Origin: Candidatus Micrarchaeota archaeon
GTDB lineage: Archaea; Micrarchaeota; Micrarchaeia; Anstonellales; Bilamarchaeaceae
DNA length: 64,000 nt
Direction of reading: 5' to 3'
Assembly (NCBI GenBank): GCA_964647855.1
Contig: CAZYJW010000003.1
Span: 67,431-131,430 of the forward strand
Position 1 is the first letter of the stretch; every line of letters begins with the position of its first letter. The position numbers and the translations under genes were made by a program. Below are positions 2,580-55,039 of the stretch, one piece after another. The notes below the pieces were generated by a model. That model made no database searches. It saw nothing but the letters and a program-made list of their open reading frames with translations, and was not told the DNA's origin.

Positions 2580-3476
2580 GCGGAGGGGCCAGTGCCTTCT
2601 CAGGGCCTCGAGCATCTCAGATGCGCTCTGGTAGCGTTCCTCGGCGCGCTCCCGCACCGCCTTCAGGATAATCGACGCGGCCGCGCATGGCGCGGTTTCC
2701 CGCAGGCCCCCGAGCAGAATTCTCTCGGATTCGTCCATCCAGTAGGGGGCGGCCGGAGCCCTGCCGGATACCATGTGGTAGGCAAGCATCCCGAGCGCAT
2801 AGAGGTCGGTCCGCTCGTCCGTCCTTCCGCCGAAGAGCTCGGGAGCGCAGTATGAGAGGTTGCCCGGCATGAAGGAGACGCGTAAAAGGCGCGAGAGCAC
2901 GCTGCCCCCGTGCACGCGCTCGGAGACGCCGAAATCGAGCAGGACCGCGCCGCCTTCCGTGATCATCACGTTGGACGGCTTGATGTCGCGGTGGATGAAC
3001 CCTGCTGAATGGACCGCAATGAGGGCGCTGCATACGCCCAGGAGTATGCCCCGGGCCTCCCCCGCTTCATAAACGCGCCCTTCCCCAAGCCGCGCAGAAA
3101 GGCTCTTCCCCCGCACGTGCTCCAGCACCAGGAAATCCGAGCCTTCGAAAGGCCCGTCCCCGAAGCGCCCGGAATCCAGCAGGTTTGCTATGTTCGGACT
3201 TGTGATTTCTGAAAGCGCCCTTTTTTCGCGCCTGAGCGCCTCCCTGGCTCCTGCGGATTCCCTCGCGACCTTGAGCGCGACCTCCCTGCCGGTTTTCCTG
3301 TCGAATGCGCGGTAGACGCCGCCCATGCATCCCCCGCCCAGCGCGCCCAGCCCGTCGAATCGCCCCATCTGCTCGGTCTCGGCCTTGAAGATGGAGAACG
3401 CTCCGTTTCGCCTTCGCGCAGGGGTGTGGTTCAGCCCGCCGCCGTGCATGGATGAATCTGGGCGCCTTTGTTTCAT
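2574..3476 (-). CDS. Hanks-type Ser/Thr protein kinase (stand-alone catalytic domain)
   Basis: Gly-rich loop LGGGCMGGVY, VALK, HRDIKPSN, DFG, YCAPE, D.YALG. Confidence 0.93.
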   Translation of the reverse strand: MKQRRPDSSMHGGGLNHTPARRRNGAFSIFKAETEQMGRFDGLGALGGGCMGGVYRAFDRKTGREVALKVARESAGAREALRREKRALSEITSPNIANLLDSGRFGDGPFEGSDFLVLEHVRGKSLSARLGEGRVYEAGEARGILLGVCSALIAVHSAGFIHRDIKPSNVMITEGGAVLLDFGVSERVHGGSVLSRLLRVSFMPGNLSYCAPELFGGRTDERTDLYALGMLAYHMVSGRAPAAPYWMDESERILLGGLRETAPCAAASIILKAVRERAEERYQSASEMLEALRRHWPLRS

Positions 3477-3593: not shown

Positions 3594-4772
3594 ATGATAA
3601 GGCTTGAGCTGGACCGGAAAAGGCGTTCAATCTCTGTGAAGGAGCCGGCCGACGTCTCCTCGCTGCAGAACGGCTTCTACGGCCAGATGAAACGGGGAAT
3701 CATTTACCTCACACCGGAGGAGGCACTCTACGTGATGGACATCCGCAACGGCAGGTGCTTCGACTCCGCCGGCAACGAATACGGCTTCAACGAGGTCGCC
3801 TCGCTCTTCCTCCGGAACAGGAAGCTCCTCGCGCGCTACCTCACCTACAAGGATTACCGCGACAAGGGGCTCATTCCCCGCCCGGCAGAAGAGGCCGAAG
3901 GCGGCTACGGGAGGGGCACGTCAGTGAAATACGCCGAGGGGAGCCTCTCGATGGACTCCTTCTCGTTCCAGGGGCTTTACTTCCCGAACGACCTCATCAC
4001 AATCGTTGACGACGAGAAGGCGGGGAAGGAGCTTTATGAAAGATACTGGCTCGGCCAGTTCGGGACGTACAAGGCCGCGCACCGGGGCAGGATTTCCAAG
4101 CTCGACGTCTACGAGACCATATTCCTGCTCAAGCACGGCGACCTCCACCTGAGGAACGCGAAGCTTGCAGATGTGGAGAAGGGGGCCCGAAAGCGCATCA
4201 GATTCTTCGCGGACATGTATCTAGTGTACGAGGACTGGCGCAAGCGGGGCTACGTGGTGAAGACGGGATTCAAGTTCGGGACGCATTTCCGCATCTATTT
4301 CCCGGGGGCGTCCCCGGTGCGGAGCGAGGACGAGTGGATGCATTCCAAGCACGTCATCCACGTGTTCCCGAGGAGGCACAAGCAGCTGATATCCGAATGG
4401 GCCCGCGCCATACGCGTCGCCCACAGCGTGAAGAAGACGTTCATACTCGCCATACCCGGCAAGAAGGCCGAGCCGCCCGCGGCCGGAGCGAAGAGGCGGA
4501 GGCTGGACTTCATCCTGTATCACCGGAAGAAGGGCGGGATAGATACCCCGAAGGACGGGACCCCGAAATACCTCATGTACTCCCTCACCGAGGACGAGTA
4601 CATCGGCGGGGAGGAGCTCGCGAAGGCCCTTGCCGAGTGCGGCGCCTCCGGCCTCGAGATGATGATGGCGATAGCCGACCGGGAGAGCAGCGTGACGTAT
4701 TACGTCATCAAGTCCATCGACCTCCCGGGAAGCGAGTACGAGTATTACGAGATAGAATGGCTGCAACCATAG
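3594..4772 (+). CDS. endA: tRNA-splicing endonuclease, epsilon2 (three-unit, ARMAN/Micrarchaeota) type
   Basis: GFKFGTHFRIY, H and K catalytic-region motifs; 392 aa; GTYK loop with Lys160 resembling the ARMAN-specific loop. Confidence 0.92.
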   Translation: MIRLELDRKRRSISVKEPADVSSLQNGFYGQMKRGIIYLTPEEALYVMDIRNGRCFDSAGNEYGFNEVASLFLRNRKLLARYLTYKDYRDKGLIPRPAEEAEGGYGRGTSVKYAEGSLSMDSFSFQGLYFPNDLITIVDDEKAGKELYERYWLGQFGTYKAAHRGRISKLDVYETIFLLKHGDLHLRNAKLADVEKGARKRIRFFADMYLVYEDWRKRGYVVKTGFKFGTHFRIYFPGASPVRSEDEWMHSKHVIHVFPRRHKQLISEWARAIRVAHSVKKTFILAIPGKKAEPPAAGAKRRRLDFILYHRKKGGIDTPKDGTPKYLMYSLTEDEYIGGEELAKALAECGASGLEMMMAIADRESSVTYYVIKSIDLPGSEYEYYEIEWLQP

Positions 4773-7376: not shown

Positions 7377-8606
7377 TCAGCGCCTGCGCCTGTGCATGAT
7401 GGCGTGGTGGGCCATGAGGCGGATGGCGTTTATCCTGATGAAACCCGCGGAATCCGCCTGGTTGAAGCCGCCCTCGATGTCCATGCTCGAGAGCTCCTTG
7501 TCGTAGAGGGAGCTCGGCGACTCCCTGCCCCTTATCGTGATGTTCCCCTTGAAGAGGCTTAGGTGTACCACGCCGTCGATGACCTCCTGGCTCTTGTCTA
7601 TCGCGGCCATCAGGAAGTCCATCTCGGGGCTGAACCAGAAGCCGTTGTACACGAGCTCGGAGAACTTCGGCTCGAGCATGTCCCGCAGGCGCATCACCTC
7701 GCGGTCCATCGCGATTGCCTCGATGTCCATGTGGGCGGCGCGCAGGATGGTCGCGCCGGGCGTCTCGTAGACGCCCCTGGACTTGATTCCGACGAAGCGG
7801 TTCTCCACTATGTCGATGCGGCCGACTCCGTGCTCCGCGCCCGCCTCGTTCAGGAACATGAAAAGCTCCAGCGGGTCCGTCTTCTCGACGCCCCTGCCCT
7901 TGTCCACCGCCTTCACCGGGATGCCGTCCTTGAAATGTATCTCGAGCTCGGCCGGGGTGTCGGGGGCCTCCGCGGGGGATTTCGTCCACTCGAACATGTC
8001 CTCCGTGGGCGCGGTCATCGGGTCCTCGAGTACGCCGGACTCGTAGCTGATGTGCATGAGGTTCGCGTCGGTGCTGTAGGGCTTCTCGTGCGTCGCCTTG
8101 ATAGGTATGCCCTTCTCCTTCGCGTAGTTGATGAGGTCGGTCCTTCCCTTGAACCTTGAGAGGAATTCCGCGTCCTTCCACGGGGCGATGACCCTGATTC
8201 CCGGATTCAGGGCGAAATAGGTGAGCTCGAAGCGCACCTGGTCGTTGCCCTTTCCGGTGGCCCCGTGGGATACGAACTGCGCGCCCTCCTTCTCCGCTAT
8301 CTCTATCTGCCTTTTTGCGATGAGGGGCCTTGCGAGGGACGTTCCCAGCAGGTATCTCCCCTCGTATATGGCGTTCGCCTTTATGGCCGGGAAGATGAAG
8401 TCCGTCACGAACTCCTTTTTCAGATCCTCCACATACACCTTGGACGCCCCGACCTTTAGCGCCTTCTCCTTCGCGGCCGCGAAGTCCTCCTTCTGCCCCA
8501 CGTCGGCGATGTACGCCACGACCTCGTAGCCCTTGTCCACGAGCCACTTCAGGATGCACGATGTGTCCAATCCGCCGGAATATGCCAAAACGACCTTGTT
8601 GCCCAT
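7377..8606 (-). CDS. argG: Argininosuccinate synthase
   Basis: [53 protein letters not shown]; start trimmed to MGNKVV. Confidence 0.98.
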
Positions 8607-11531: not shown

Positions 11532-11743
11532 TCTCCCACCCGCATATATATGTGTGTAAAAGTGTTTATAATAGGGCTGGAAGGATGGAAAACGCGCCCG
11601 CTGCGAAAGCCGGCGCTTTCGCTTCCGTCCCGAATCCAATTGGCACGGCTGATTCCGCATGGGATAAAAAAAGGGGTTCGGGCCCGGGCATTGTGTCGTT
11701 CCGACACTTCGCCCCATGCCCTGCAGTGCGGCTTATGTATTCA

Positions 11744-11957
11744 CGGGCCCGGGGGGATTTGAACCCCCGACCTACAGCTGCCATCTTTTTGGGAAAAAGG
11801 TGGCTCCAAAAACCACCCCTTCGCCAAATAATAGAAGGCTGCCGCTCTATCCAAGCTTCTCTCCGCCGTTGATTTGGAACGGGCCAAAACGCGAAGCGTT
11901 CTCATCTACGTGTTTTGGGCCGCCTTTTCCCAAAAGGCGGAACTGAGCTACGAGCCC
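11744..11957 (-). tRNA. tRNA-Arg(TCT) with two introns (15/16: 11856-11942, 87 nt; 37/38: 11780-11831, 52 nt)
   Basis: Spliced GGGCTCG TA GCTC AGCTTGGATA GAGC G GCAGC CTTCTAA GCTGT AGGTC GGGGG TTCAAAT CCCCC CGGGCCC G folds to a cloverleaf; BHB-like junctions. Confidence 0.93.
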
Positions 11958-12197: not shown

Positions 12198-12299
12198 GCT
12201 ATCCACCTGGAATTTTGATGGTATAACGACGCAAGTCTTTTAAATATACTCGATGAGCCGGCGCGGAAAAGGTAAAAAACCGGAGCGAGATGAATAGGC

Positions 12300-12776
12300 A
12301 TGGACCTTCTCCGGATGAACTGGGATTCGACGATTCGGCATTGCGAGGAGCTTGCGGGCATGATCGGCGGTTATAAGCCGGACATGATTGTCGGCCTCTC
12401 CAGGGGCGGCCTCGTCCCGGCGCGCATAATGTCCGACCTCCTCGCCGTGAAGGATGTCGGGGTTCTTGGCATAAGCTTCTATCGGGCCATGGAGAAGGCC
12501 TCCGACTTCCCGAAGATAACGCAGGAGCTTGCGATGGACCTTTCAGGAAAGCGCATCCTCGTCGTGGACGATGTCGCGGACACCGGACGCAGCCTCATGG
12601 TCGCGAAGGATTACCTGAAGCGCAAGGGCGCGGCCGAGATAAGGATCGCCACCATACACTACAAGCCGGTCTCGGCGTTCAAGCCGGACTATTTCGTGGC
12701 CACGACCACGGCGTGGATAGTCTACCCGTGGGAGCGCCACGAGATCGAGCGCGAGCTCGCCGCGAGGAAGGGATGA
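12300..12776 (+). CDS. Purine phosphoribosyltransferase (type I PRTase)
   Basis: GLSRGGLVP, ILVVDDVADTGRS PRPP loop, WIVYPWE. Confidence 0.93.
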   Translation: MDLLRMNWDSTIRHCEELAGMIGGYKPDMIVGLSRGGLVPARIMSDLLAVKDVGVLGISFYRAMEKASDFPKITQELAMDLSGKRILVVDDVADTGRSLMVAKDYLKRKGAAEIRIATIHYKPVSAFKPDYFVATTTAWIVYPWERHEIERELAARKG

Positions 12777-14672
12777 CTATTTCAGCCGCACGGCCTCGAG
12801 GTCCGCAATCGCCCTGGAGTCCTTGCGCATCATCATGCCCACGGAGCGGGCGAAATCCTCCGTCTTGCCCCAGTCGCCGTGCATCGTCAGGATGCGCTCG
12901 GGCGCGGGGCGCAGGTTCTTGAGGTACGCCATCAGCTGGGCCCTGTCCGAGTGGCCCGAATAGCCCTCGCAGGTCTCCACGCGCATGTTGATGTTTAGCG
13001 TCTTCATCTTCCCGTCGTCGCCGAGGATGGGCAGTTCCCTCATGCCGCGCTGAATCTTGTTGCCCAGCGAGAGGGCGCTCTGGTAGCCCACGAAGAGGAG
13101 CGCGTTGTTCGGGTCGTCCGCCATGAGCTTCAGGTACTCGTAGGACGGCCCGCCGGTGAGCATGCCCGACGGGGCGAGGATTATCGCCGGCTCGCCGTTC
13201 ACTATCTCCTCGCGGGACATGCCGCGCGCGACCTTTATGAGGGGCGACTCGAAGGGGCTCCTGTCGGACAGGATGCGCCTCTGGAGCTGCTCGCGCATGT
13301 ATTCGGGGTATGCCGTGTGGATGGCCGATGCCTCCATAATCATGCCGTCGATGTATATCGGCAGGTTGAAGTCGGGGTCGCGGCGGGTCATCTCCTCCAG
13401 GACGAGGAGCATCTCCTGCGAGCGGCCGACCGCGAACACCGGTATCAGCACCTTGCCGCGCTTGGCAGCCGTCTCCTTTATGATGGCATGCAGGCGCTTC
13501 TCGCTGTCGAAGCGGTTCACCGATATGTCGTTCCTTCCCCCGTAGGTGCTCTCTATGAAGAGCGTCTCGAGCCGCGGGAAGTGCGTGGTCGCGGGGTCGA
13601 AGAGCCTCGTGAATCCGAACTTGAGGTCGCCCGTGTAGACCAGGTTGTGGGCCCCCTCGCCGATGTGGAGGTGGACGCTCGAGCTGCCGAGCATGTGCCC
13701 GGCATTGTAGAGCGTCATCTTTATCTCGGGGGTGATGTCCACGACCTCCTCGTAATCCACGGTCACCACGTTGCGGAGCTCCTTGTAGATGTCCTTCTTC
13801 GTGTAGGGCGGGTCGACGTCGAAGGCCTTCTTGCACAGGTTGAGATAGTCCTGCTGCAGGAGCACCATGAAGTCGCGGGTCGGCGGGGTGCAGTAGACCG
13901 GGCCGTCGTAGCCGTATGCGAAGAGGTATGGCAGGAACCCCATGTGGTCCATGTGCCCGTGGCTCACCACCACGGCGTCTATGTCCTCGAGCGAGAAGCC
14001 CATCATGTTGAGGTATGGGTATGCCTTGGTGGAGTCTCCGGTCGCCGGATTGACGCCAACGTCGATGAGCACCTTCGAGTTCGGCGTCTGGACCAGCATG
14101 CACGAGCGGCCGACTTCCCGGAACCCGCCGAGGGCCATGACCCGCACCCAGTCGCCCGAGGGGGATGGCTGGCATATCTTCTTCCCGATGTTCACGAGGA
14201 ACTTCTTCCTCTCCGCGGCCTCGAGCGCGTTTATCTTCCGAACGCCCTCCAGCGTGGCCGATGGCATCGTCGGGGCGCGCAGCGTCACCGGCGCCCAGTT
14301 GGTGCGGAGCATTATCTCCTTGAGTATGGAGCCGCCCTTGCCTATCACGAGGCCGGGCTTTATCGCCTCGATGCGCACCTCGCACATCTCCGGCACGAAG
14401 GTTATGCTCTTGATGTCCGCTTCCTTGGGGACCAGCGTCTCTATGGCCTTCCGGGCCTCCTCGACGTCTGATAGGTGCGCCGGGTCGACGCGAATCGTGA
14501 CCTTCTTCTTGAGCGCGCTCGCAAGTTCCTTGATGAGCCGGTCGTTCGAGTAGAACGCGCGTATGTTCTTGATGTATATCACTGTGGAGAGCCCCTCTGG
14601 CTCCACTTTCGTCACCTCGCAGTCCGGAGGCATGATTTCTCCTATTTTCTTTACTATGTCCTTATAGTGCAA
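12777..14672 (-). CDS. fttA: aCPSF1/FttA KH-domain beta-CASP ribonuclease (transcription termination factor)
   Basis: KH domains (PGLVIGKGG), GGFREVGRS, SHGHMDH, AGHMLGSS, GYSGHSD; follows psmB as in the conserved archaeal pair. Confidence 0.96.
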   Translation of the reverse strand: MHYKDIVKKIGEIMPPDCEVTKVEPEGLSTVIYIKNIRAFYSNDRLIKELASALKKKVTIRVDPAHLSDVEEARKAIETLVPKEADIKSITFVPEMCEVRIEAIKPGLVIGKGGSILKEIMLRTNWAPVTLRAPTMPSATLEGVRKINALEAAERKKFLVNIGKKICQPSPSGDWVRVMALGGFREVGRSCMLVQTPNSKVLIDVGVNPATGDSTKAYPYLNMMGFSLEDIDAVVVSHGHMDHMGFLPYLFAYGYDGPVYCTPPTRDFMVLLQQDYLNLCKKAFDVDPPYTKKDIYKELRNVVTVDYEEVVDITPEIKMTLYNAGHMLGSSSVHLHIGEGAHNLVYTGDLKFGFTRLFDPATTHFPRLETLFIESTYGGRNDISVNRFDSEKRLHAIIKETAAKRGKVLIPVFAVGRSQEMLLVLEEMTRRDPDFNLPIYIDGMIMEASAIHTAYPEYMREQLQRRILSDRSPFESPLIKVARGMSREEIVNGEPAIILAPSGMLTGGPSYEYLKLMADDPNNALLFVGYQSALSLGNKIQRGMRELPILGDDGKMKTLNINMRVETCEGYSGHSDRAQLMAYLKNLRPAPERILTMHGDWGKTEDFARSVGMMMRKDSRAIADLEAVRLK

Positions 14673-19602: not shown

Positions 19603-19692
19603 GTTGCGCACGTTTTGCACCTCTCTTCCCGGGGATTCCCGGGGCCTTGCCCGCTGGGGGATTCGGGGGCCTTGCCCCCGAACCGCCCGAAT

Positions 19693-19827
19693 TGGGGTCA
19701 CGGAGATTTGAACTCCGACGTACAGGTTTCACGGCTCGCATGCCCCCGCACGGGCGGGGGCGGGATCTGGAGCCTGCCGCGCTACCAGGTTGCGTGGCCT
19801 CGGATGAGGCCCTTACGCCATAACCCC
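19693..19827 (-). tRNA. tRNA-Trp(CCA) with two introns (15/16: 19790-19812, 23 nt; about 37/38: 19728-19766, 39 nt)
   Basis: Spliced GGGGTTA TG GCGT AACCTGGTA GCGC G GCAGG CTCCAGA CCTGT ACGT CGGAG TTCAAAT CTCCG TGACCCC A; the D-loop intron has a perfect 4-bp GCGT/ACGC helix with 3-nt bulges. Confidence 0.9.
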
Positions 19828-24809: not shown

Positions 24810-25766
24810 ATGGCGCAGAGCCTGGATTTCGCCCTCAGATACCCGTTTTGCGCAGCGGCCAGGGATGCCCTCGGCTCGATGGAGCTCAACGGCCGCATCG
24901 TCGAGCTTGCGGTCGCAAGGATAAAGAAGGGCCTTGAGGGCGACCGCTCCGTCCGCCTGCTCATCCACGAGGGCGAGAAGCGCGAGGAGATAGCCGCTTA
25001 CGCGGCGGCGCGCATGATTCTGGGCTCCCTCCGGAACAGCTTCATAACCAATTCTTTCGCGGTGAACGAGTCCAAGAGGGTGGGCGACATGCTGGAGAGG
25101 GAGGACGCCGCCGCCCTGGACGCCGTCGCGGCTGAATTCGGGATAAAAACGTCGGGCTCGGGCAAGCTCCTCACAGTCGACCTGCCGACCTACCTGAGAT
25201 ACAGCACGCGCAACCCCCACTACAGGCTGATAAACCGCAGGCTCGTGTCGGGAACCGTCGAGATAACCCGCGGCGAGAAAATCCGCCTCATAGAGGAGGC
25301 CGTGAAGAAGCACATCGAGGCCATCCCGCTTGTGAAGGACCCGCCGGGCATTATCACGAAAGCCGGGGAGGCGCTGGTCGCGGAGCTGCCCAGGCACGCC
25401 GGCAGCCGGATGCAGGTCACCGTGAAGGAGGGCGACCACCCCCCGTGCGTCGTTAGGCTGCTTGATGAGATGAAAAAGCACCAGAACCTGCCCCACCAGG
25501 CCAGGCTTTTCCTCGCCGCATACCTGATACGCATCGGGATGGATGATGATGCCATCAACGCCCTGTTCTCCATGCTTCCGGACTACAACGAGAGGACGAC
25601 GCGCTATCAGGTCGGCCACATCAGGAAAAAGGGGTACAGCGTGCCCGCTTGCTCCACCGTTATGACATACGGCCTGTGCGTCGCCGTCTGCAGGATAGGA
25701 ACCCCCCTGAACTGGCATACGCTCGAAGAGGGCAGGAAAGAAACCCTGCGGAGGAAGGAGGGCTGA
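24810..25766 (+). CDS. priL: DNA primase large subunit
   Basis: HPPCV, NLPHQAR..LA.YL...G, TRYQV.HI...Y..P.C, C-terminal Fe-S cysteines; adjacent to priS. Confidence 0.9.
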   Translation: MAQSLDFALRYPFCAAARDALGSMELNGRIVELAVARIKKGLEGDRSVRLLIHEGEKREEIAAYAAARMILGSLRNSFITNSFAVNESKRVGDMLEREDAAALDAVAAEFGIKTSGSGKLLTVDLPTYLRYSTRNPHYRLINRRLVSGTVEITRGEKIRLIEEAVKKHIEAIPLVKDPPGIITKAGEALVAELPRHAGSRMQVTVKEGDHPPCVVRLLDEMKKHQNLPHQARLFLAAYLIRIGMDDDAINALFSMLPDYNERTTRYQVGHIRKKGYSVPACSTVMTYGLCVAVCRIGTPLNWHTLEEGRKETLRRKEG

Positions 25767-25768
25767 CT

Positions 25769-26866
25769 ATGGACATCCTCGACCTGCAGGCGGCCAAGAA
25801 GGCGTTCGCGGAGTATTATTCGACGGCCGAGCTGCGGATACCCTCGATAGAGCGCAGGGAGTTCGGGGTAGGCAACCAGAAGAAGATTGACGCGAGGCAC
25901 CTGAACTTCGCGAACGCGCAGGAGTTCCGCAACTACCTCTGCAACAACACCCCGCTCTTCGTCTCCCACTCGACGGCGTATTATGATTATCCCGGAGCGA
26001 CCCCGATGGCGAAGAAGGGCTGGAGGGGCGCGGACCTGGTCTTCGACCTCGACATACATGCCGAGGGGAAATACGGCGCATACGCCCATCTCCCCCGCGT
26101 GCGGGAGGACGCCGCGCGCCTTGCCCGGGACTTCATCCTGAACGATTTCGGCATCAGAAGGGAGCACGTAGCGGTCGTGTTCTCCGGCAACCGCGGCTAC
26201 CACATCCACGTCAGGGACCCCGCGTTCCTGCCGCTCGGGAGCGAGGAGCGCCGCGAGCTCGTGGATTATATCATGGGCCAGGGGCTCGATTACACCCAGT
26301 TCTTCAGCCACGATGGAAAGCCGGCAAGGCTGATAGGCCCCCGCCCCGACGAGGGGGGCTACCGCGGCAGGTTCGCAAGGGGCGTCCTCGCGCTGCTTGG
26401 GAGCGACCCCGGCTCGCTCTCACGCCTTTTCACGAAGGAGAAGGAGCGCGGCTTCTTCATCAGCGGAATCAACGAGGGCAACTGGGGGAGGACGTCGCTT
26501 AAGTTCCCGGACATTATAGCCAGGCTGAAGCCGGTCGCAGCGACGCTGCCGGTGCGCTCGGTGGACACGGACGCCGGGGTCACGCAGGACCTGAGCAAGC
26601 TCATCCGCGTCCCTAATTCCATCCACGGCGACACGGGGATGGTGGCGAGGGTCGTGGACGACATATCGAAATTCGACCCCTGGCGCGACGCGGCGATGCC
26701 CGGGGGCGGGGAGATGCGGGTGAGGTTCGCGGAGGACGTCCCCGCCATCGAGATGGACGAGACCATGGGGCCGTTCGGCAAGGGCGACGAGAGGGCGCTC
26801 CCGCGCCCGAAGGCGATGTTCTTCGTCCTGAAGGGGAGCGCATCTTTTGCAAGAGCGGGGGATTAG
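25769..26866 (+). CDS. priS: DNA primase small subunit
   Basis: REFG, STAYY, GADLVFDLD, FSGNRGYHIH, D..VT.D...LIR.P.S.HG.TG. Confidence 0.96.
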   Translation: MDILDLQAAKKAFAEYYSTAELRIPSIERREFGVGNQKKIDARHLNFANAQEFRNYLCNNTPLFVSHSTAYYDYPGATPMAKKGWRGADLVFDLDIHAEGKYGAYAHLPRVREDAARLARDFILNDFGIRREHVAVVFSGNRGYHIHVRDPAFLPLGSEERRELVDYIMGQGLDYTQFFSHDGKPARLIGPRPDEGGYRGRFARGVLALLGSDPGSLSRLFTKEKERGFFISGINEGNWGRTSLKFPDIIARLKPVAATLPVRSVDTDAGVTQDLSKLIRVPNSIHGDTGMVARVVDDISKFDPWRDAAMPGGGEMRVRFAEDVPAIEMDETMGPFGKGDERALPRPKAMFFVLKGSASFARAGD

Positions 26867-30563: not shown

Positions 30564-31754
30564 ATGGCTTCTTTTGACAAGATCCTTTCAGAGAAATCCA
30601 TCTTCCGGGACCTCTCGGTGCTCTCGCCGCATTACGTCCCCCGCGACCTGCCCTACAGGGAGGGCCAGATGCACGAGATAATGTCGGTGATTTCCCCGGC
30701 CCTGCGGGGGCAGAAGCCCAGGAACCTCATCATATACGGGACGACCGGCACCGGCAAGACATGCAGCACGAAGAGGGTGATGGAGGAGTTCGTGAAGGCC
30801 GCCGAAGCCGGCAGGGCGAGCATGCATTACGTCAACTGCAGGATATACAATTCCAGGTACAGGATACTCCAGAAGATTCTCAGGGGATACCTGCCCGAGC
30901 TCGAGAAGGCCGGATTCGGCCTGCCTTTCCTCTATGAGAAGCTCGTGGAGATTGCCACGCGGGGGGAGCAGATAGTCATCATACTCGATGAAATCGACAT
31001 GGTGAAGGACCTTGACGAGCTGGTATACACGCTCACGCGCTCGAACGACGAGATAACCAAGGGGGGCGTCAGCATCATCGGCATCTCCAACAAGCTCTCG
31101 TTCAAGGATTCCCTGGATCCCCGCAGCAAGAGCAGCCTGTATGAGACCGAGATGGTCTTCGAGCCCTACAGCGCCGAGCAGCTCAAGAGGATACTCGAGC
31201 AGAGGGCGGCCGAGGGCTTCAACGACGGCGTGGTGGAGCCCTCCGCGGTGAACCTCGCGGCCGCGATAACATCGCAGGAGAGCGGCGACGCGCGCTACGC
31301 TCTGAAGCTCCTGAACAAGGCCGGCGAGATGGCCCAGCAGGCCGGGAAGGCCAGGATAACGGATGAGGACGTCGAGGCCGCCTGCAGGAAGGTCGAGATA
31401 GACCTCGTCCTCGAGACGCTGAAAACCCTTCCCGAGATGCACCAGCTCGCCCTCTATGCGGTAGCAACGCTTACGTCGTCCGGAAGCAGGTACGCGCGCC
31501 TCGAGGGCGTGGACCCCGGCTTCCTTTTCTCCGGGGAGGTCTACGAGGAGTACGAGCGCGCCTGCAAAAGCGCGCGCAAGAGGCCGCGCAGCTCGCGATG
31601 GTTCAAGGAATACGTGAACGACCTCGAGACCCTCGGCCTCATCGTCACGACACCGAGCGGAAAGGGCGTGCGGGGGCAGACCACGCTGATAAAGCTCGGC
31701 CCGGGGCCGGAAAGCGTCCTTGGGATACTGAAGAAGAACCTTTTCGGGGCATAA
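30564..31754 (+). CDS. cdc6: Orc1/Cdc6 replication initiator
   Basis: LSPHYVP..LPYRE, GTTGTGKT, ILDEID, SGDARYAL.LL, C-terminal wHTH with G.RGQT. Confidence 0.96.
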   Translation: MASFDKILSEKSIFRDLSVLSPHYVPRDLPYREGQMHEIMSVISPALRGQKPRNLIIYGTTGTGKTCSTKRVMEEFVKAAEAGRASMHYVNCRIYNSRYRILQKILRGYLPELEKAGFGLPFLYEKLVEIATRGEQIVIILDEIDMVKDLDELVYTLTRSNDEITKGGVSIIGISNKLSFKDSLDPRSKSSLYETEMVFEPYSAEQLKRILEQRAAEGFNDGVVEPSAVNLAAAITSQESGDARYALKLLNKAGEMAQQAGKARITDEDVEAACRKVEIDLVLETLKTLPEMHQLALYAVATLTSSGSRYARLEGVDPGFLFSGEVYEEYERACKSARKRPRSSRWFKEYVNDLETLGLIVTTPSGKGVRGQTTLIKLGPGPESVLGILKKNLFGA

Positions 31755-34829: not shown

Positions 34830-34947
34830 GGGGCTTCCATGCCCTTCCAGGCATGTGCCCCCTAACTCCCGGTTTTTGGGCGCTTTTTCCTAAAAAGCGC
34901 AACGCTAGGGGGGCTTCCATGTTCGGCGAACCGAACACGCGCCCCCC
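34830..34947 (-). repeat. Two related GGGGC-NN-stem-GGAA-GCCCC hairpins downstream of tRNA-Ser
   Basis: 12-bp direct repeat ggggcttccatg at 34830 and 34910; each copy folds into a helix, a 2x4 internal loop and a hairpin. Confidence 0.55.
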
Positions 34948-34961
34948 TTCGCGCATGCGAG

Positions 34962-35096
34962 CGCTAGGGGGGAGATTTGAACTCCCGGACGCTTGCGCGC
35001 AACAGGTTTCCGACCGCCTTTGGCACCCCGTTTTGGGGCGCCTTTTGCTAAAAGGCGCTAGCAACCTGCCGCCCTACCAGTCTAGGCGACCCCAGC
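34962..35096 (-). tRNA. tRNA-Ser(GCT) with a 37/38 intron (35008-35058, 51 nt)
   Basis: GCTGGGG/CCCTAGC acceptor, GCAGG TTGCTAA CCTGT anticodon arm, long variable arm GCGC-GCAA-GCGT, GGGAG TTCAAAT CTCCC. Confidence 0.93.
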
Positions 35097-35229
35097 ATGA
35101 TAACATCTGTCGAACCTTAGCTGGGGGGCTTTGGACGGAATGCCGTCCAAATTGACCCCAGCGTGAAAACTTATGTCGAACAACAGCTGGGGTATGATGG
35201 CCGAAACGTCGGCCAGCAGCGACCCCAGC
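35097..35229 (-). ncRNA. Two tandem acceptor-stem-mimic hairpin cassettes with 22-nt linkers, upstream of tRNA-Ser
   Basis: Units 35186-35229 and 35120-35162 start GCTGGGGTC, end CCCCAGC+T and enclose 7-bp and 9-bp hairpins; linkers 35163-35184 and 35097-35118; expression not shown. Confidence 0.6.
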
Positions 35230-35324
35230 GGAAAATTTCCTTAGAACCAACTTCGGGCAAATTTTCATCAAACTTCAGCCGGTTTGACTAAGCATGAATG
35301 GAAAGGGGGTTATAATAAGTTTCC

Positions 35325-54684: not shown

Positions 54685-54779
54685 CCGAAAACGGGTGGGG
54701 CCGTTTATCATTTTATTCTCCGCATGTCCGCCTTCCCCTCAGGTAGCTTGATAAACGCTCCAGAGCAAGCAATAATCAC

Positions 54780-54852
54780 GCAGGAGCAGCGAGGTCATTG
54801 AACTGCGGTTCAATATTCGCGACTCCCGCTGGTGTGAAACGGCTGTGTTCAC
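54780..54852 (+). ncRNA. Acceptor-stem-mimic hairpin cassette with 22-nt linker, upstream of tRNA-Leu
   Basis: GCAGGAG...CTCCCGC+T (54780-54830) with inner GCGA/TCGC and ATTGAAC/GTTCAAT stems; linker 54831-54852; expression not shown. Confidence 0.6.
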
Positions 54853-55039
54853 GCAGGAGTAGCGAAGCGGTCAAACGCGGGGGACTTAAGGGGCCTTTTG
54901 GCTTCGGGTGAAATCCGGGCAAAACGCCCGCGAAAAGCCCTGAGGCGAGGCATAGGCCGCGTTATTTTTCCCTTTCCGAACGCGGTTCGGGAAATCCTCT
55001 GGCCCAGCGCCTTCGGAGGTTCGAATCCTCCCTCCTGCA
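54853..55039 (+). tRNA. tRNA-Leu(TAA) with a 37/38 intron (54891-54993, 103 nt)
   Basis: GCAGGAG/CTCCTGC acceptor, GGGGA CTTAAGA TCCTC anticodon arm, long variable arm, GGAGG TTCGAAT CCTCC. Confidence 0.92.

Follow-up and report, generated by a model that had tools for sequence, protein, structure and literature searches.

Two hairpins, each opening with the first nine nucleotides of the tRNA that they precede, are chained to the 5' end of tRNA-Ser(GCU) in a 64-kb stretch of a Candidatus Micrarchaeota archaeon (assembly GCA_964647855.1, contig CAZYJW010000003.1; hereafter the window, whose coordinates are used). Both lie on the minus strand, at 35229-35186 and 35162-35120, upstream of the intron-bearing tRNA gene (35096-34962). 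After the tRNA's nucleotides 1-9, each closes with the perfect complement, followed by an unpaired T and then by 22 nt. The same design precedes a tRNA-Leu gene, appears as a mirror image behind tRNA 3' ends, and recurs in related genomes, which are given here as L-numbers (labels of the related loci and contigs compared with the window). Judging from sequence and predicted structure, the hairpins probably act in the processing or folding of the tRNA precursor. The reading tentatively preferred here is that they are acceptor-stem minihelices in the precursor leader and trailer, which would serve as processing or stability modules resembling t-elements.

The first unit of the Ser array (35186-35229, minus strand, 44 nt, GCTGGGGTCGCTGCTGGCCGACGTTTCGGCCATCATACCCCAGC) opens with GCTGGGGTC and closes with CCCCAGC. 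Its outer stem, GCUGGGGU/ACCCCAGC, encloses the inner stem UGGCCGA/UCGGCCA (TGGCCGA/TCGGCCA in the DNA), which is capped by a CGUU loop. It is followed on the same strand (35163-35185) by the T at 35185 and spacer 1 (GTTGTTCGACATAAGTTTTCAC, 22 nt, 35184-35163), the 3' end of which, GTTTTCAC, is kept across all related genomes in alignment A1. Unit 2 (35120-35162, minus strand, 43 nt, GCTGGGGTCAATTTGGACGGCATTCCGTCCAAAGCCCCCCAGC) combines the outer stem GCUGGGG/CCCCAGC with the inner stem UUUGGACGG/CCGUCCAAA (TTTGGACGG/CCGTCCAAA in the DNA) and the loop CAUU. It belongs to type B, as do its homologues in L093 and L097, and shows a compensatory A-U to G-C change. The T at 35119 and spacer 2 (AAGGTTCGACAGATGTTATCAT, 22 nt, 35118-35097) complete the minus-strand leader (35097-35119), the last spacer nucleotide being tRNA position -1. 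The tRNA itself starts with G1 at 35096 and is recognized by the Rfam tRNA model with 37.1 bits (E = 5e-6, sensitive mode). Its first exon (35096-35059), 51-nt intron (35058-35008) and second exon (35007-34962), all on the minus strand, were delimited by comparison with L093, the intronless orthologue that places the intron after position 37. GCUGGGG/CCCUAGC forms the acceptor stem, which has a G4.U69 pair; the discriminator is G73. The aIF2-gamma gene adjoins the tRNA-Ser locus upstream.

Folded in isolation, units 1 and 2 reach -28.4 kcal/mol (z = -5.0) and -28.7 kcal/mol (z = -6.4), respectively, relative to shuffles, and a covariance model of the units, R1, scores them at 80.1 and 68.9 bits and the Leu unit at 45 bits. 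An outer stem of 7-8 bp starting from G1 and an unpaired T after the stem are present in all 12 units compared. The hairpins contain neither a T-loop nor a stack of about 12 bp as formed by acceptor and T stems; they have internal loops and the tetraloops CGUU, UGUU, CAUU or UGCG, and their GTTCAA motif sits within the stem. At the Ser array, the Rfam tRNA model matches the true tRNA only and none of the hairpins. The original prediction had described tandem acceptor-stem mimics joined to the 5' end of the tRNA, and on re-reading the sequence this description is right: the lengths, the spacing, the start at a G1 equivalent, the T and the inner hairpins all hold. The arrangement extends further than had been noted, the tRNA-Leu case and the 3' mirror modules having been missed.

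The Leu module lies on the plus strand and consists of a 50-nt hairpin (GCAGGAGCAGCGAGGTCATTGAACTGCGGTTCAATATTCGCGACTCCCGC, 54780-54829), the T and a 22-nt spacer (GGTGTGAAACGGCTGTGTTCAC; 54830-54852 together), followed by G1 of tRNA-Leu(UAA) (54853-55039, plus strand). Its outer stem, GCAGGAG/CUCCCGC, has one A.C mismatch, its inner stem is AUUGAAC/GUUCAAU, and its predicted fold reaches -24.2 kcal/mol (z = -4.6). The tRNA carries an 80-nt intron and a second insertion and, with 41.9 bits, is the sole tRNA of the window at the Rfam gathering level. Thus, the same design is found at two tRNAs, with arms specific to each (GCUGGGG for Ser, GCAGGAG for Leu) and with the T and the 22-nt spacing common to both. 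The spacers themselves are alike: by eye, 17 of the 22 nucleotides of the Leu spacer are the same in the L097 Ser spacer ACTGTGAAACAACTGTTTTCAC. Over its left half, the Leu unit is similar to nucleotides 1-24 of tRNA-Leu, with a score beyond nucleotide 8 that was reached by 14 of 2000 shuffles. Ser units resemble their tRNA over nucleotides 1-8 to 1-11 only, and the idea that their left half is a copy of tRNA nucleotides 1-21 was rejected, as no significant similarity exists past nucleotides 8-11. The window leader before the Leu unit, AATAATCAC, matches the tRNA-adjacent leader of L117. Together with a TATA-like TTGATAAA (54748-54755, plus strand, -32 to -25 from the Leu-unit G1), a candidate promoter that is kept in L099 and L117, this leader is conserved in Leu-locus relatives, so that the unit and its spacer look as if they were added between the leader and tRNA-Leu.

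At the 3' side, a mirror module of tRNA-Ser occupies 34903-34954 on the minus strand, downstream of the tRNA 3' end and ahead of the first T5 run. It reads GCGCGAAGGGGGG-GUGUUCGG-UUCG-CCGAACAU-CCCCCCUAGCG, in which the three middle parts are the inner hairpin, with a predicted fold of -35.4 kcal/mol. The module ends in CCCCCCTAGCG, and its distal strand (34913-34903) is an exact copy of the last 11 nt of the tRNA (34972-34962). L092 and L095 carry a Ser 3' module at identical spacing; the inner stems differ yet pair, being GGTAATCGG/CCGATTACC and CATGATCGG/CCGATCATG in L092 and L095 and GTGTTCGG/CCGAACAT in the window. Behind tRNA-Arg, the corresponding module (11679-11743, minus strand, -25.7 kcal/mol) consists of the hairpin GGGCAU..GUGUCG GAA CGACAC..AUGCCC, then a copy of the tRNA's last 10 nt (CCCGGGCCCG, 11688-11679) and a T7 run; a weak R1 match covers 11686-11744. 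In L100 and L101, the flavin reductase gene has no whole tRNA-Leu beside it but only 3'-end fragments that finish with CCTCCTGCA, together with minihelix units. These degenerate tRNA-Leu loci (L100 1020-1175; L101 9870-9965 and 7268-7450) continue with a unit GCGGGAG-hairpin-CTCCTGCA and a T-run. L101 also has, 2.5 kb off, an 81-nt tRNA-Leu-like piece (GCAGGAG...CTCCTGCA) in which no D or anticodon arm can be recognized. In all 3' modules, the exact copy is carried by the strand farther from the tRNA and its complement by the nearer one, giving a direct-inverted-direct layout.

The arrangement is reproduced in independent assemblies and is therefore not an assembly artefact, a possibility that the original prediction had raised. 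The Ser array is byte-identical in the Logan assemblies SRR21006537, SRR33114998 and SRR33114999, where the aIF2-gamma protein is the same. Of seven loci from independent Logan assemblies with the same flavin reductase, six have an identical Leu unit. In the seventh, L106, the unit is kept and the difference is confined to the T arm; the scrambled tRNA-Leu T-arm at about 1040-1060 of this locus (GGTTTGGGTGGTGGTTCCTGCA) is either an assembly error or a variant. The expected presence in related Micrarchaeota was borne out as well, since six other genomes have units at the orthologous aIF2-gamma/tRNA-Ser locus: L001 with three copies before tRNA-Ser, L097 with two, and L086, L092, L093 and L095 with one each. 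Homologues of unit 1 were found in L001 and L086. The aIF2-gamma proteins of the unit-bearing genomes are 76-82% identical to that of the window (81% for L001), and the closest aIF2-gamma relatives in the one-genome-per-species GTDB set are Micrarchaeota. No units occur at tRNA-Ser of L002 (aIF2-gamma 79%), L003 (75%), L004, L005 and L006. L068, with an aIF2-gamma identity of 64%, has a variant unit with a shorter stem and a 12-nt spacer. Among the loci fetched from archaea outside the clade, no such unit was found at tRNAs.

A metagenome pattern scan produced 18 matches, five of which (L086, L092, L093, L095 and L097) are true Micrarchaeota loci with the same gene neighbourhood. The other 13 were discarded as unrelated, comprising 12 bacterial palindromic repeats and one chance match; the bacterial contigs (L081-L085, L088-L091, L094, L096 and L098) contain a nested palindrome, GTCACCCCAGCGAAAGCTGGGGTCTC...GAGACCCCAGCTTTCGCTGGGGTGACG, that matches the pattern by chance. 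Within the window, the scan pattern was a 7-mer, its reverse complement and, after 18-28 nt, the 7-mer again. In this bare form it has many chance matches, as the window is GC-rich, and an energy scan for local hairpins was uninformative for the same reason. Restricted to tRNA leaders, a 23-nt gap and at most one mismatch, it has exactly three matches (two Ser, one Leu), all ending at the tRNA G1. Neither in the window nor in 25 loci did the R1 search return further 5' modules; it gave only weak 3'-module matches and one orphan in L097, and no further unit copy exists elsewhere in the 64 kb. This orphan (L097 2737-2790, GCTATGGAC-TTGAACGGCGATCCGTTCAA-GTCTAGC) is intergenic, has no adjoining tRNA, and lies upstream of a fluoride riboswitch (2967-3040, 42 bits). 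Its 22-nt core is identical to that of Ser unit 2 of the same genome and its arms differ, which hints at dispersal of units. A restriction of the units to intron-containing tRNAs is refuted by L093, where an intronless tRNA-Ser has a unit.

Sequence and structure of the units are both conserved. In the alignment of 12 unit sequences, the outer helix is 94.6% paired and nearly invariant, and the inner helix has four pairs in which both partners have changed. Across the structure as a whole, such double-sided changes are seen in 17 cells, compared with 6.5 +/- 2.3 in shuffled alignments (0 of 500 reached this value) and 3-6 with slid partners. The inner hairpins are one homologous, co-varying stem and not imported sequence, so that the 'variable cargo' of the original prediction finds no support. 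L093 unit 1 and L097 unit 2 are identical at 42 of 44 positions, both differences being in the tetraloop, while the adjacent aIF2-gamma genes of these two loci agree at 74% of their last 231 nt, and at no more than 52% of third codon positions. By a rough binomial estimate, the neutral chance of such unit identity is about 1e-10. The units are thus not decaying scars, and the passive insertion scars that had been suggested as a third option are argued against by this strong conservation. The spacer likewise follows a consensus, T-A-N-N-G-T-G-A-R-A-C-N3-T-G-T-T-T-T-C-A-C, which is kept in most genomes. A mini-hairpin within it (GUGAAAC/GUUUUCAC) is not claimed, being 77% paired without covariation and weak in the window's Ser spacers. 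These comparisons show that the units are under purifying selection. G.U pairs number nine in sense and seven in antisense orientation among about 290 bp, the stems are almost purely Watson-Crick, and neither G.U counts nor sense versus antisense folding energies reveal a bias towards one strand of action. As G.U pairs are equally rare on both strands, constraint at the RNA and at the DNA level is indistinguishable in this way.

The units very likely originated by duplication of a tRNA end. An inner core, TTGAAC..GTTCAA, occurs in Ser units of type B, in the Leu unit and in that of L068, and these tRNAs have GTTCAA as their T-loop motif too (GTTCAAAT). The units may therefore derive from a tandem tRNA copy that was deleted internally, or from a foldback duplication.

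Regarding transcription, the region upstream of unit 1 (35259-35315, minus strand) holds two promoter candidates. The TATA-like TTATTATAA is present at 35315-35307 as had been stated, and is only one of two candidate boxes, the other being GAAAATTT at 35266-35259, which spans -37 to -30 from the unit 1 G1. In L095 and L097, TATA-like boxes stand at about -30 to -21 from the first-unit G1 (by eye). Between units and tRNA there is no AT-rich box and no T-run longer than T4, and runs of T5-T9 come after the tRNA or the 3' module. With no promoter-like box or strong terminator separating them, module and tRNA are probably co-transcribed. Since the equivalent box of L093 is only about 15 nt from the unit and the tRNA of L003 begins 11 nt past the aIF2-gamma stop codon, co-transcription with aIF2-gamma is also possible.

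Under the preferred reading, each unit would be a hairpin of 43-50 nt born by duplication of the terminus of the adjoining tRNA gene, with its outer 7-8 bp mimicking the acceptor stem and its distal strand identical to the tRNA 5' strand on the 5' side or to the 3' strand on the 3' side. A single precursor would then contain one to three repeats of hairpin, U and about 22 nt, then the tRNA and, in some loci, about 10 nt and a further hairpin before the T-run. Each hairpin would fold once made, sequestering the antisense arm that could pair with the tRNA end, and would display a stem resembling an acceptor, complete with G1 and, on the 3' side, an unpaired nucleotide. RNase P might cut 5' of each G1 and tRNase Z past the unpaired nucleotide, so that leader and trailer would be clipped into defined pieces and the tRNA freed; before cleavage, terminal hairpins would shield the precursor ends. 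Release of minihelix RNAs by RNase P and RNase Z, the first option of the original prediction, would be compatible with this anatomy. Transcription, cleavage sites and benefit to the cell are what we infer here. Related behaviour is known in other systems. In vitro, the RNA of archaeal RNase P can cut model hairpin substrates (PMC3035440), and in plant mitochondria it is tRNA-like t-elements that direct how ends are formed (PMC1920247).

Several points weigh against this reading. The hairpins have no T-loop, no continuous 12-bp acceptor/T helix and no Rfam match, which makes it uncertain that archaeal RNase P or tRNase Z would recognize them efficiently. If the units were a processing signal of a general kind, there would be no need for their arms to copy the cognate tRNA, and the gain from chaining two or three copies is unexplained. 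The module is also dispensable, as tRNA-Trp and tRNA-Arg of the window lack a 5' unit. No Leu unit exists at the tRNA-Leu loci of L099, L117 and L115, the adjacent flavin reductases of which are 75-78% identical. The leader hairpin of L099 is of another kind, L117 has no leader hairpin, and L115 carries its tRNA in inverted orientation. Finally, near-pure Watson-Crick stems without strand bias fit a DNA palindrome equally.

A related proposal, for which the sequences make a possible though rather doubtful case, is that the units form a new class of cis-encoded tRNA-maturation element in DPANN archaea, with self-matched acceptor minihelices, chained in the precursor, that would be freed by RNase P and tRNase Z as discrete, stable small RNAs or act as an anti-acceptor switch gating how specific tRNAs fold and are processed. 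In both cases, an RNA that copies a tRNA's own acceptor stem would control the supply of tRNA. If the units act as RNA, this would be the first tRNA precursor with structured copies of its own acceptor stem in leader and trailer. It would bear on tRNA maturation and control in tiny archaea with intron-laden tRNAs and reduced RNA-processing machinery, and on the in vivo substrate range of RNase P and tRNase Z. It would also show minihelices arising from tRNA genes, the reverse of the classic minihelix-to-tRNA idea. If they act as DNA, they would represent a recurrent direct-inverted-direct duplication at tRNA gene ends, relevant to tRNA gene disruption.

Among the alternatives, a conformational leader had been the second option of the original prediction, and it is physically plausible. 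Taking the unit's left arm, its right arm, the tRNA 5' strand and the tRNA 3' strand as segments 1 to 4, pairing of 1:2 and 3:4 gives the hairpin and the cloverleaf, and pairing of 2:3 and 1:4 gives a misfolded or strand-swapped precursor. The balance between the two would gate tRNA maturation in an attenuator-like manner and might shift with the choice of start site or with a factor binding segment 1. For unit 2, its spacer and the spliced tRNA, the minimum free energy structure is indeed the strand-swapped one, with -71.7 kcal/mol against -69.1 kcal/mol for hairpin and cloverleaf (-28.7 and -40.4), i.e. about 2.6 kcal/mol more stable. In a 401-nt precursor, unit 1 is swapped in the minimum free energy structure and the centroid structure shows hairpins. 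A competitor strand moreover needs a distal arm strictly identical to the tRNA end, as seen, and the 3' modules share the layout, most clearly in L101, where CCTCCTGCA-ATTTC-GAA-GAAAT-TGCGGGAG pairs either way. However, the order of transcription favours 1:2 and thus the hairpin, so that a normal tRNA would be the default; the alignment reveals no site for a sensor or ligand, the internal loops have no conserved motif, and tandem copies bring a switch no obvious gain. An anti-acceptor leader is judged unlikely. We are similarly doubtful that the units are a by-product at the DNA level, devoid of RNA function, in which tRNA gene ends are duplicated as palindromes or inverted triplications through template switching during replication, or through tandem duplication followed by internal deletion. 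Quasi-palindrome correction would then keep the arms complementary, a freed antisense arm would harm tRNA folding, and unequal crossing-over would change the copy number. The direct-inverted-direct layout of tRNA ends on both sides is as expected from such events, as are the almost exclusively Watson-Crick stems without strand bias and the left half of the Leu unit, which is still like tRNA-Leu nucleotides 1-24. The copy number of one to three, with L001 units 1 and 3 so nearly identical that a recent duplication is indicated, and the degenerate tRNA-Leu remnants with such hairpins in L100 and L101 fit too. What speaks against a by-product is that the 42 of 44 identity between L093 and L097, at third positions of 52%, includes unpaired internal-loop bases: palindrome correction keeps pairing, not sequence, and fails to explain this. 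The spacer is also conserved and common to Ser and Leu modules though the Leu leaders of relatives differ, and persistence across lineages with aIF2-gamma only 76-82% identical to the window's argues for selection.

The remaining two explanations carry less weight. A mobile or duplicative cassette, made of the core TTGAAC..GTTCAA and the spacer GTGAAAC..GTTTTCAC, would insert at tRNA termini with target duplication and so gain target-matched arms, as an active form of the scars mentioned above. Core and spacer are common to Ser type-B, window Leu and the distant L068 units while the arms differ; the leader match to L117 looks as though unit and spacer had been inserted; the L097 orphan has the identical 22-nt core with other arms and no adjacent tRNA; and intron-like elements are likewise repeated in these genomes. 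Nevertheless, no transposase or integrase is associated with the units, the 64-kb window has no more copies, and no known mechanism gives an inverted target copy. The spacer in common could have arisen from a shared 8-nt leader and an inverted copy of that leader, and the TTGAAC/GTTCAA core may derive independently from the T-loop of each tRNA. A cassette is considered improbable. It is very improbable that the first GCUGGGGU is the true 5' end of a leaderless tRNA set by a promoter at fixed distance, as in the RNase P-free Nanoarchaeum, with everything up to the last copy being an intron removed by a splicing endonuclease of broad specificity. TATA-like boxes about 25-32 nt ahead of the first-unit G1 would agree with this, as would the 392-aa tRNA-intron endonuclease encoded in the window and the introns in all four of its tRNAs. 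But no bulge-helix-bulge motif joins equivalent repeat positions in a scan of 34880-35300. The sole candidate, in the window, needs two G.U pairs in its 4-bp central helix and is lost in L001 and L097, where position 9 varies. In addition, the Leu unit has C8 in place of the near-universal U8, and the L093 box is too close to the unit.

Besides the modules, other elements are repeated around these tRNAs. The sequence GCGCTTTTTAGGAAAAAGCGCCCAAAAACCGGGAG (34866-34900, minus strand) is a second copy of the start of the tRNA-Ser intron (35058-35024) and holds the first post-tRNA T5 run. More generally, a hairpin whose arms are T4-5 and A4-5 (GCGCYTTTTAGNAAAARGCGC or CCGCCTTTTGGGAAAAGGCGG), with CCCAAAAC directly after it, opens both the tRNA-Ser intron and the D-loop intron of tRNA-Arg, and is also found just 3' of tRNA ends. 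Copies lie at 35024-35058, 34866-34900 and 11912-11940 of the window, at 2546-2575 of L001 (intron), at about 2385 of L099 and at about 7350 of L101, the last two downstream of tRNA-Leu-like ends. It looks like a repeated, possibly mobile, intron and trailer element. The trailer of tRNA-Trp (19640-19692, minus strand) has a strong hairpin (UUCGGGGGC AA GCCCCCGAA) followed by UCCCCCAGCG, with an imperfect copy of the tRNA end, and may be a degenerate 3' module. In L002 (LFW-283_2, 12220-12340), where no 5' unit exists, the last 20 nt of tRNA-Ser (CCTCCCCGGCGTTTTGGTTT) recur about 92 nt downstream with hairpins in between, which is a longer version of the 3' duplication. A sequence of about 40 nt, TTTTTGTTCACTGGCCTCGTTTTTGTTCGTTAGCTCGC, is common to L001 (2645-2690, after tRNA-Ser) and L101 (about 7440-7480, beside the tRNA-Leu-like piece).

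Four tRNAs were seen in the window, each with one or two introns. Both tRNA-Trp(CCA) (19693-19827, minus strand) and tRNA-Arg (UCU?; 11744-11957, minus strand) have two introns and no 5' unit, the latter having been spotted via a scan for the spacer motif. Default ARAGORN found none of the four. Its intron mode recovered Ser, Leu and Trp with wrong isotype and anticodon (for instance, Ser was called Pro, and Leu was called Ser) and missed Arg, while Rfam at gathering level missed both tRNA-Trp and tRNA-Arg. Standard finders thus miss or mis-assign such tRNA genes, and the flanking mimics could confuse annotation. As for the wider context, the tRNA-intron endonuclease gene (3594-4772, plus strand) encodes 392 aa with N-terminal and catalytic domains (Pfam PF02778, PF01974). 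This size presumably corresponds to the three-unit or fused multi-unit type reported in ultrasmall archaea. FttA/aCPSF1 with KH and beta-CASP domains (12777-14672, minus strand) and the small primase subunit (25649-26866, plus strand) are encoded as well. With an Orc1/Cdc6 gene (30564-31754, plus strand) at a distance of about 3.3 kb, the tRNA-Ser array may have a replication origin nearby.

Some known identities were considered and rejected. A CRISPR array does not fit: Tandem Repeats Finder reported none, the 'spacers' would be hairpins homologous between genomes, the repeat part (spacer and arms) is only partly conserved within the array, and no cas domains occur among the roughly 39 window open reading frames (ORFs) scanned. 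C/D-box small RNAs gave only sub-threshold Rfam matches (16.9 and 18 bits against gathering values of 41 and 50). A GA/GA arrangement suggestive of a k-turn is confined to unit 1, on its antisense strand, and, by eye, is not conserved in other units. The CUGUGAG of a hammerhead-like core is not conserved in the window's spacers. Repetitive extragenic palindromic (REP) elements, bacterial interspersed mosaic elements and miniature inverted-repeat transposable elements are also small, stable, imperfect intergenic palindromes of variable copy number. In contrast to REPs, which are dispersed in hundreds with a fixed sequence, the arms here match the adjacent tRNA and no other copies exist in 64 kb.

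Ser and Leu tRNAs are common integration targets, and short direct repeats of a tRNA terminal segment beside an intact tRNA gene are what integration leaves. Integrative elements are known to leave tRNA gene fragments as att-site duplications (PMC9897764, PMC3293823). There, however, the repeat lies at the far side of a kb-scale element carrying an integrase, whereas here 50-66 nt separate repeats of 8-11 nt, an inverted copy creates a hairpin, and the whole is conserved and co-varying across species. The only ORF at the units, a mechanical one of 65 aa (35074-35271), overlaps the units and the tRNA 5' end and is implausible as an integrase or other element gene. The 5' and 3' segments of tRNA-Ser have no exact match in IMG/VR, and for the inner hairpins, for which a viral match had been envisaged, exact matches in this database are absent or irrelevant. 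Attenuators and riboswitches share with the array four consecutive segments that pair 1:2 and 3:4 or 2:3 with near-equal predicted energies, but the competing helix here is a tRNA acceptor stem, not a terminator, and no sensing element is evident. Disrupted archaeal tRNA genes, with bulge-helix-bulge introns at non-canonical sites and split or permuted tRNAs (PMC4090602, PMC3978253), occur in the same kind of intron-rich organism with a tRNA-intron endonuclease gene and have extra sequence beside the acceptor strands. The units differ from these by having no bulge-helix-bulge at their boundaries and by preceding a tRNA that is complete without them. In the strict scan of 34880-35300, no such intron splicing the repeats together was found, and a pseudo-motif with two G.U pairs is not conserved; the scan also missed the intron of tRNA-Ser itself, so relaxed motifs may escape it.

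Searches of Rfam and of full-text literature, with most subscription papers outside coverage, found no description of cognate acceptor-stem hairpins chained to a tRNA. What the literature did contain were processing elements resembling tRNAs, fragments of tRNA genes left by integration, and tRNAs that are split, permuted or intron-containing. The hairpins therefore did not turn out to be an already described tRNA leader, and the arrangement seems undescribed. Processing signals of tRNA-like shape are familiar, MALAT1 mascRNA being one, and a tRNA-like element upstream of Haloferax 5S rRNA is reportedly cut by tRNase Z (Hölzle et al. 2008). The feature is a variant of such tRNA-like cis elements and a member of none of the families tested. 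With t-elements it shares a short acceptor-stem-like hairpin with an unpaired 3' nucleotide, placed in a longer transcript where RNase P and tRNase Z could cut. Known t-elements flank mRNAs or rRNAs, are not copies of the acceptor stem of an adjacent tRNA and usually keep a T-arm, whereas the hairpins described here flank their cognate tRNA, stand in tandem, lack a T-loop, have a 3' mirror form and are only proposed to be cleaved.

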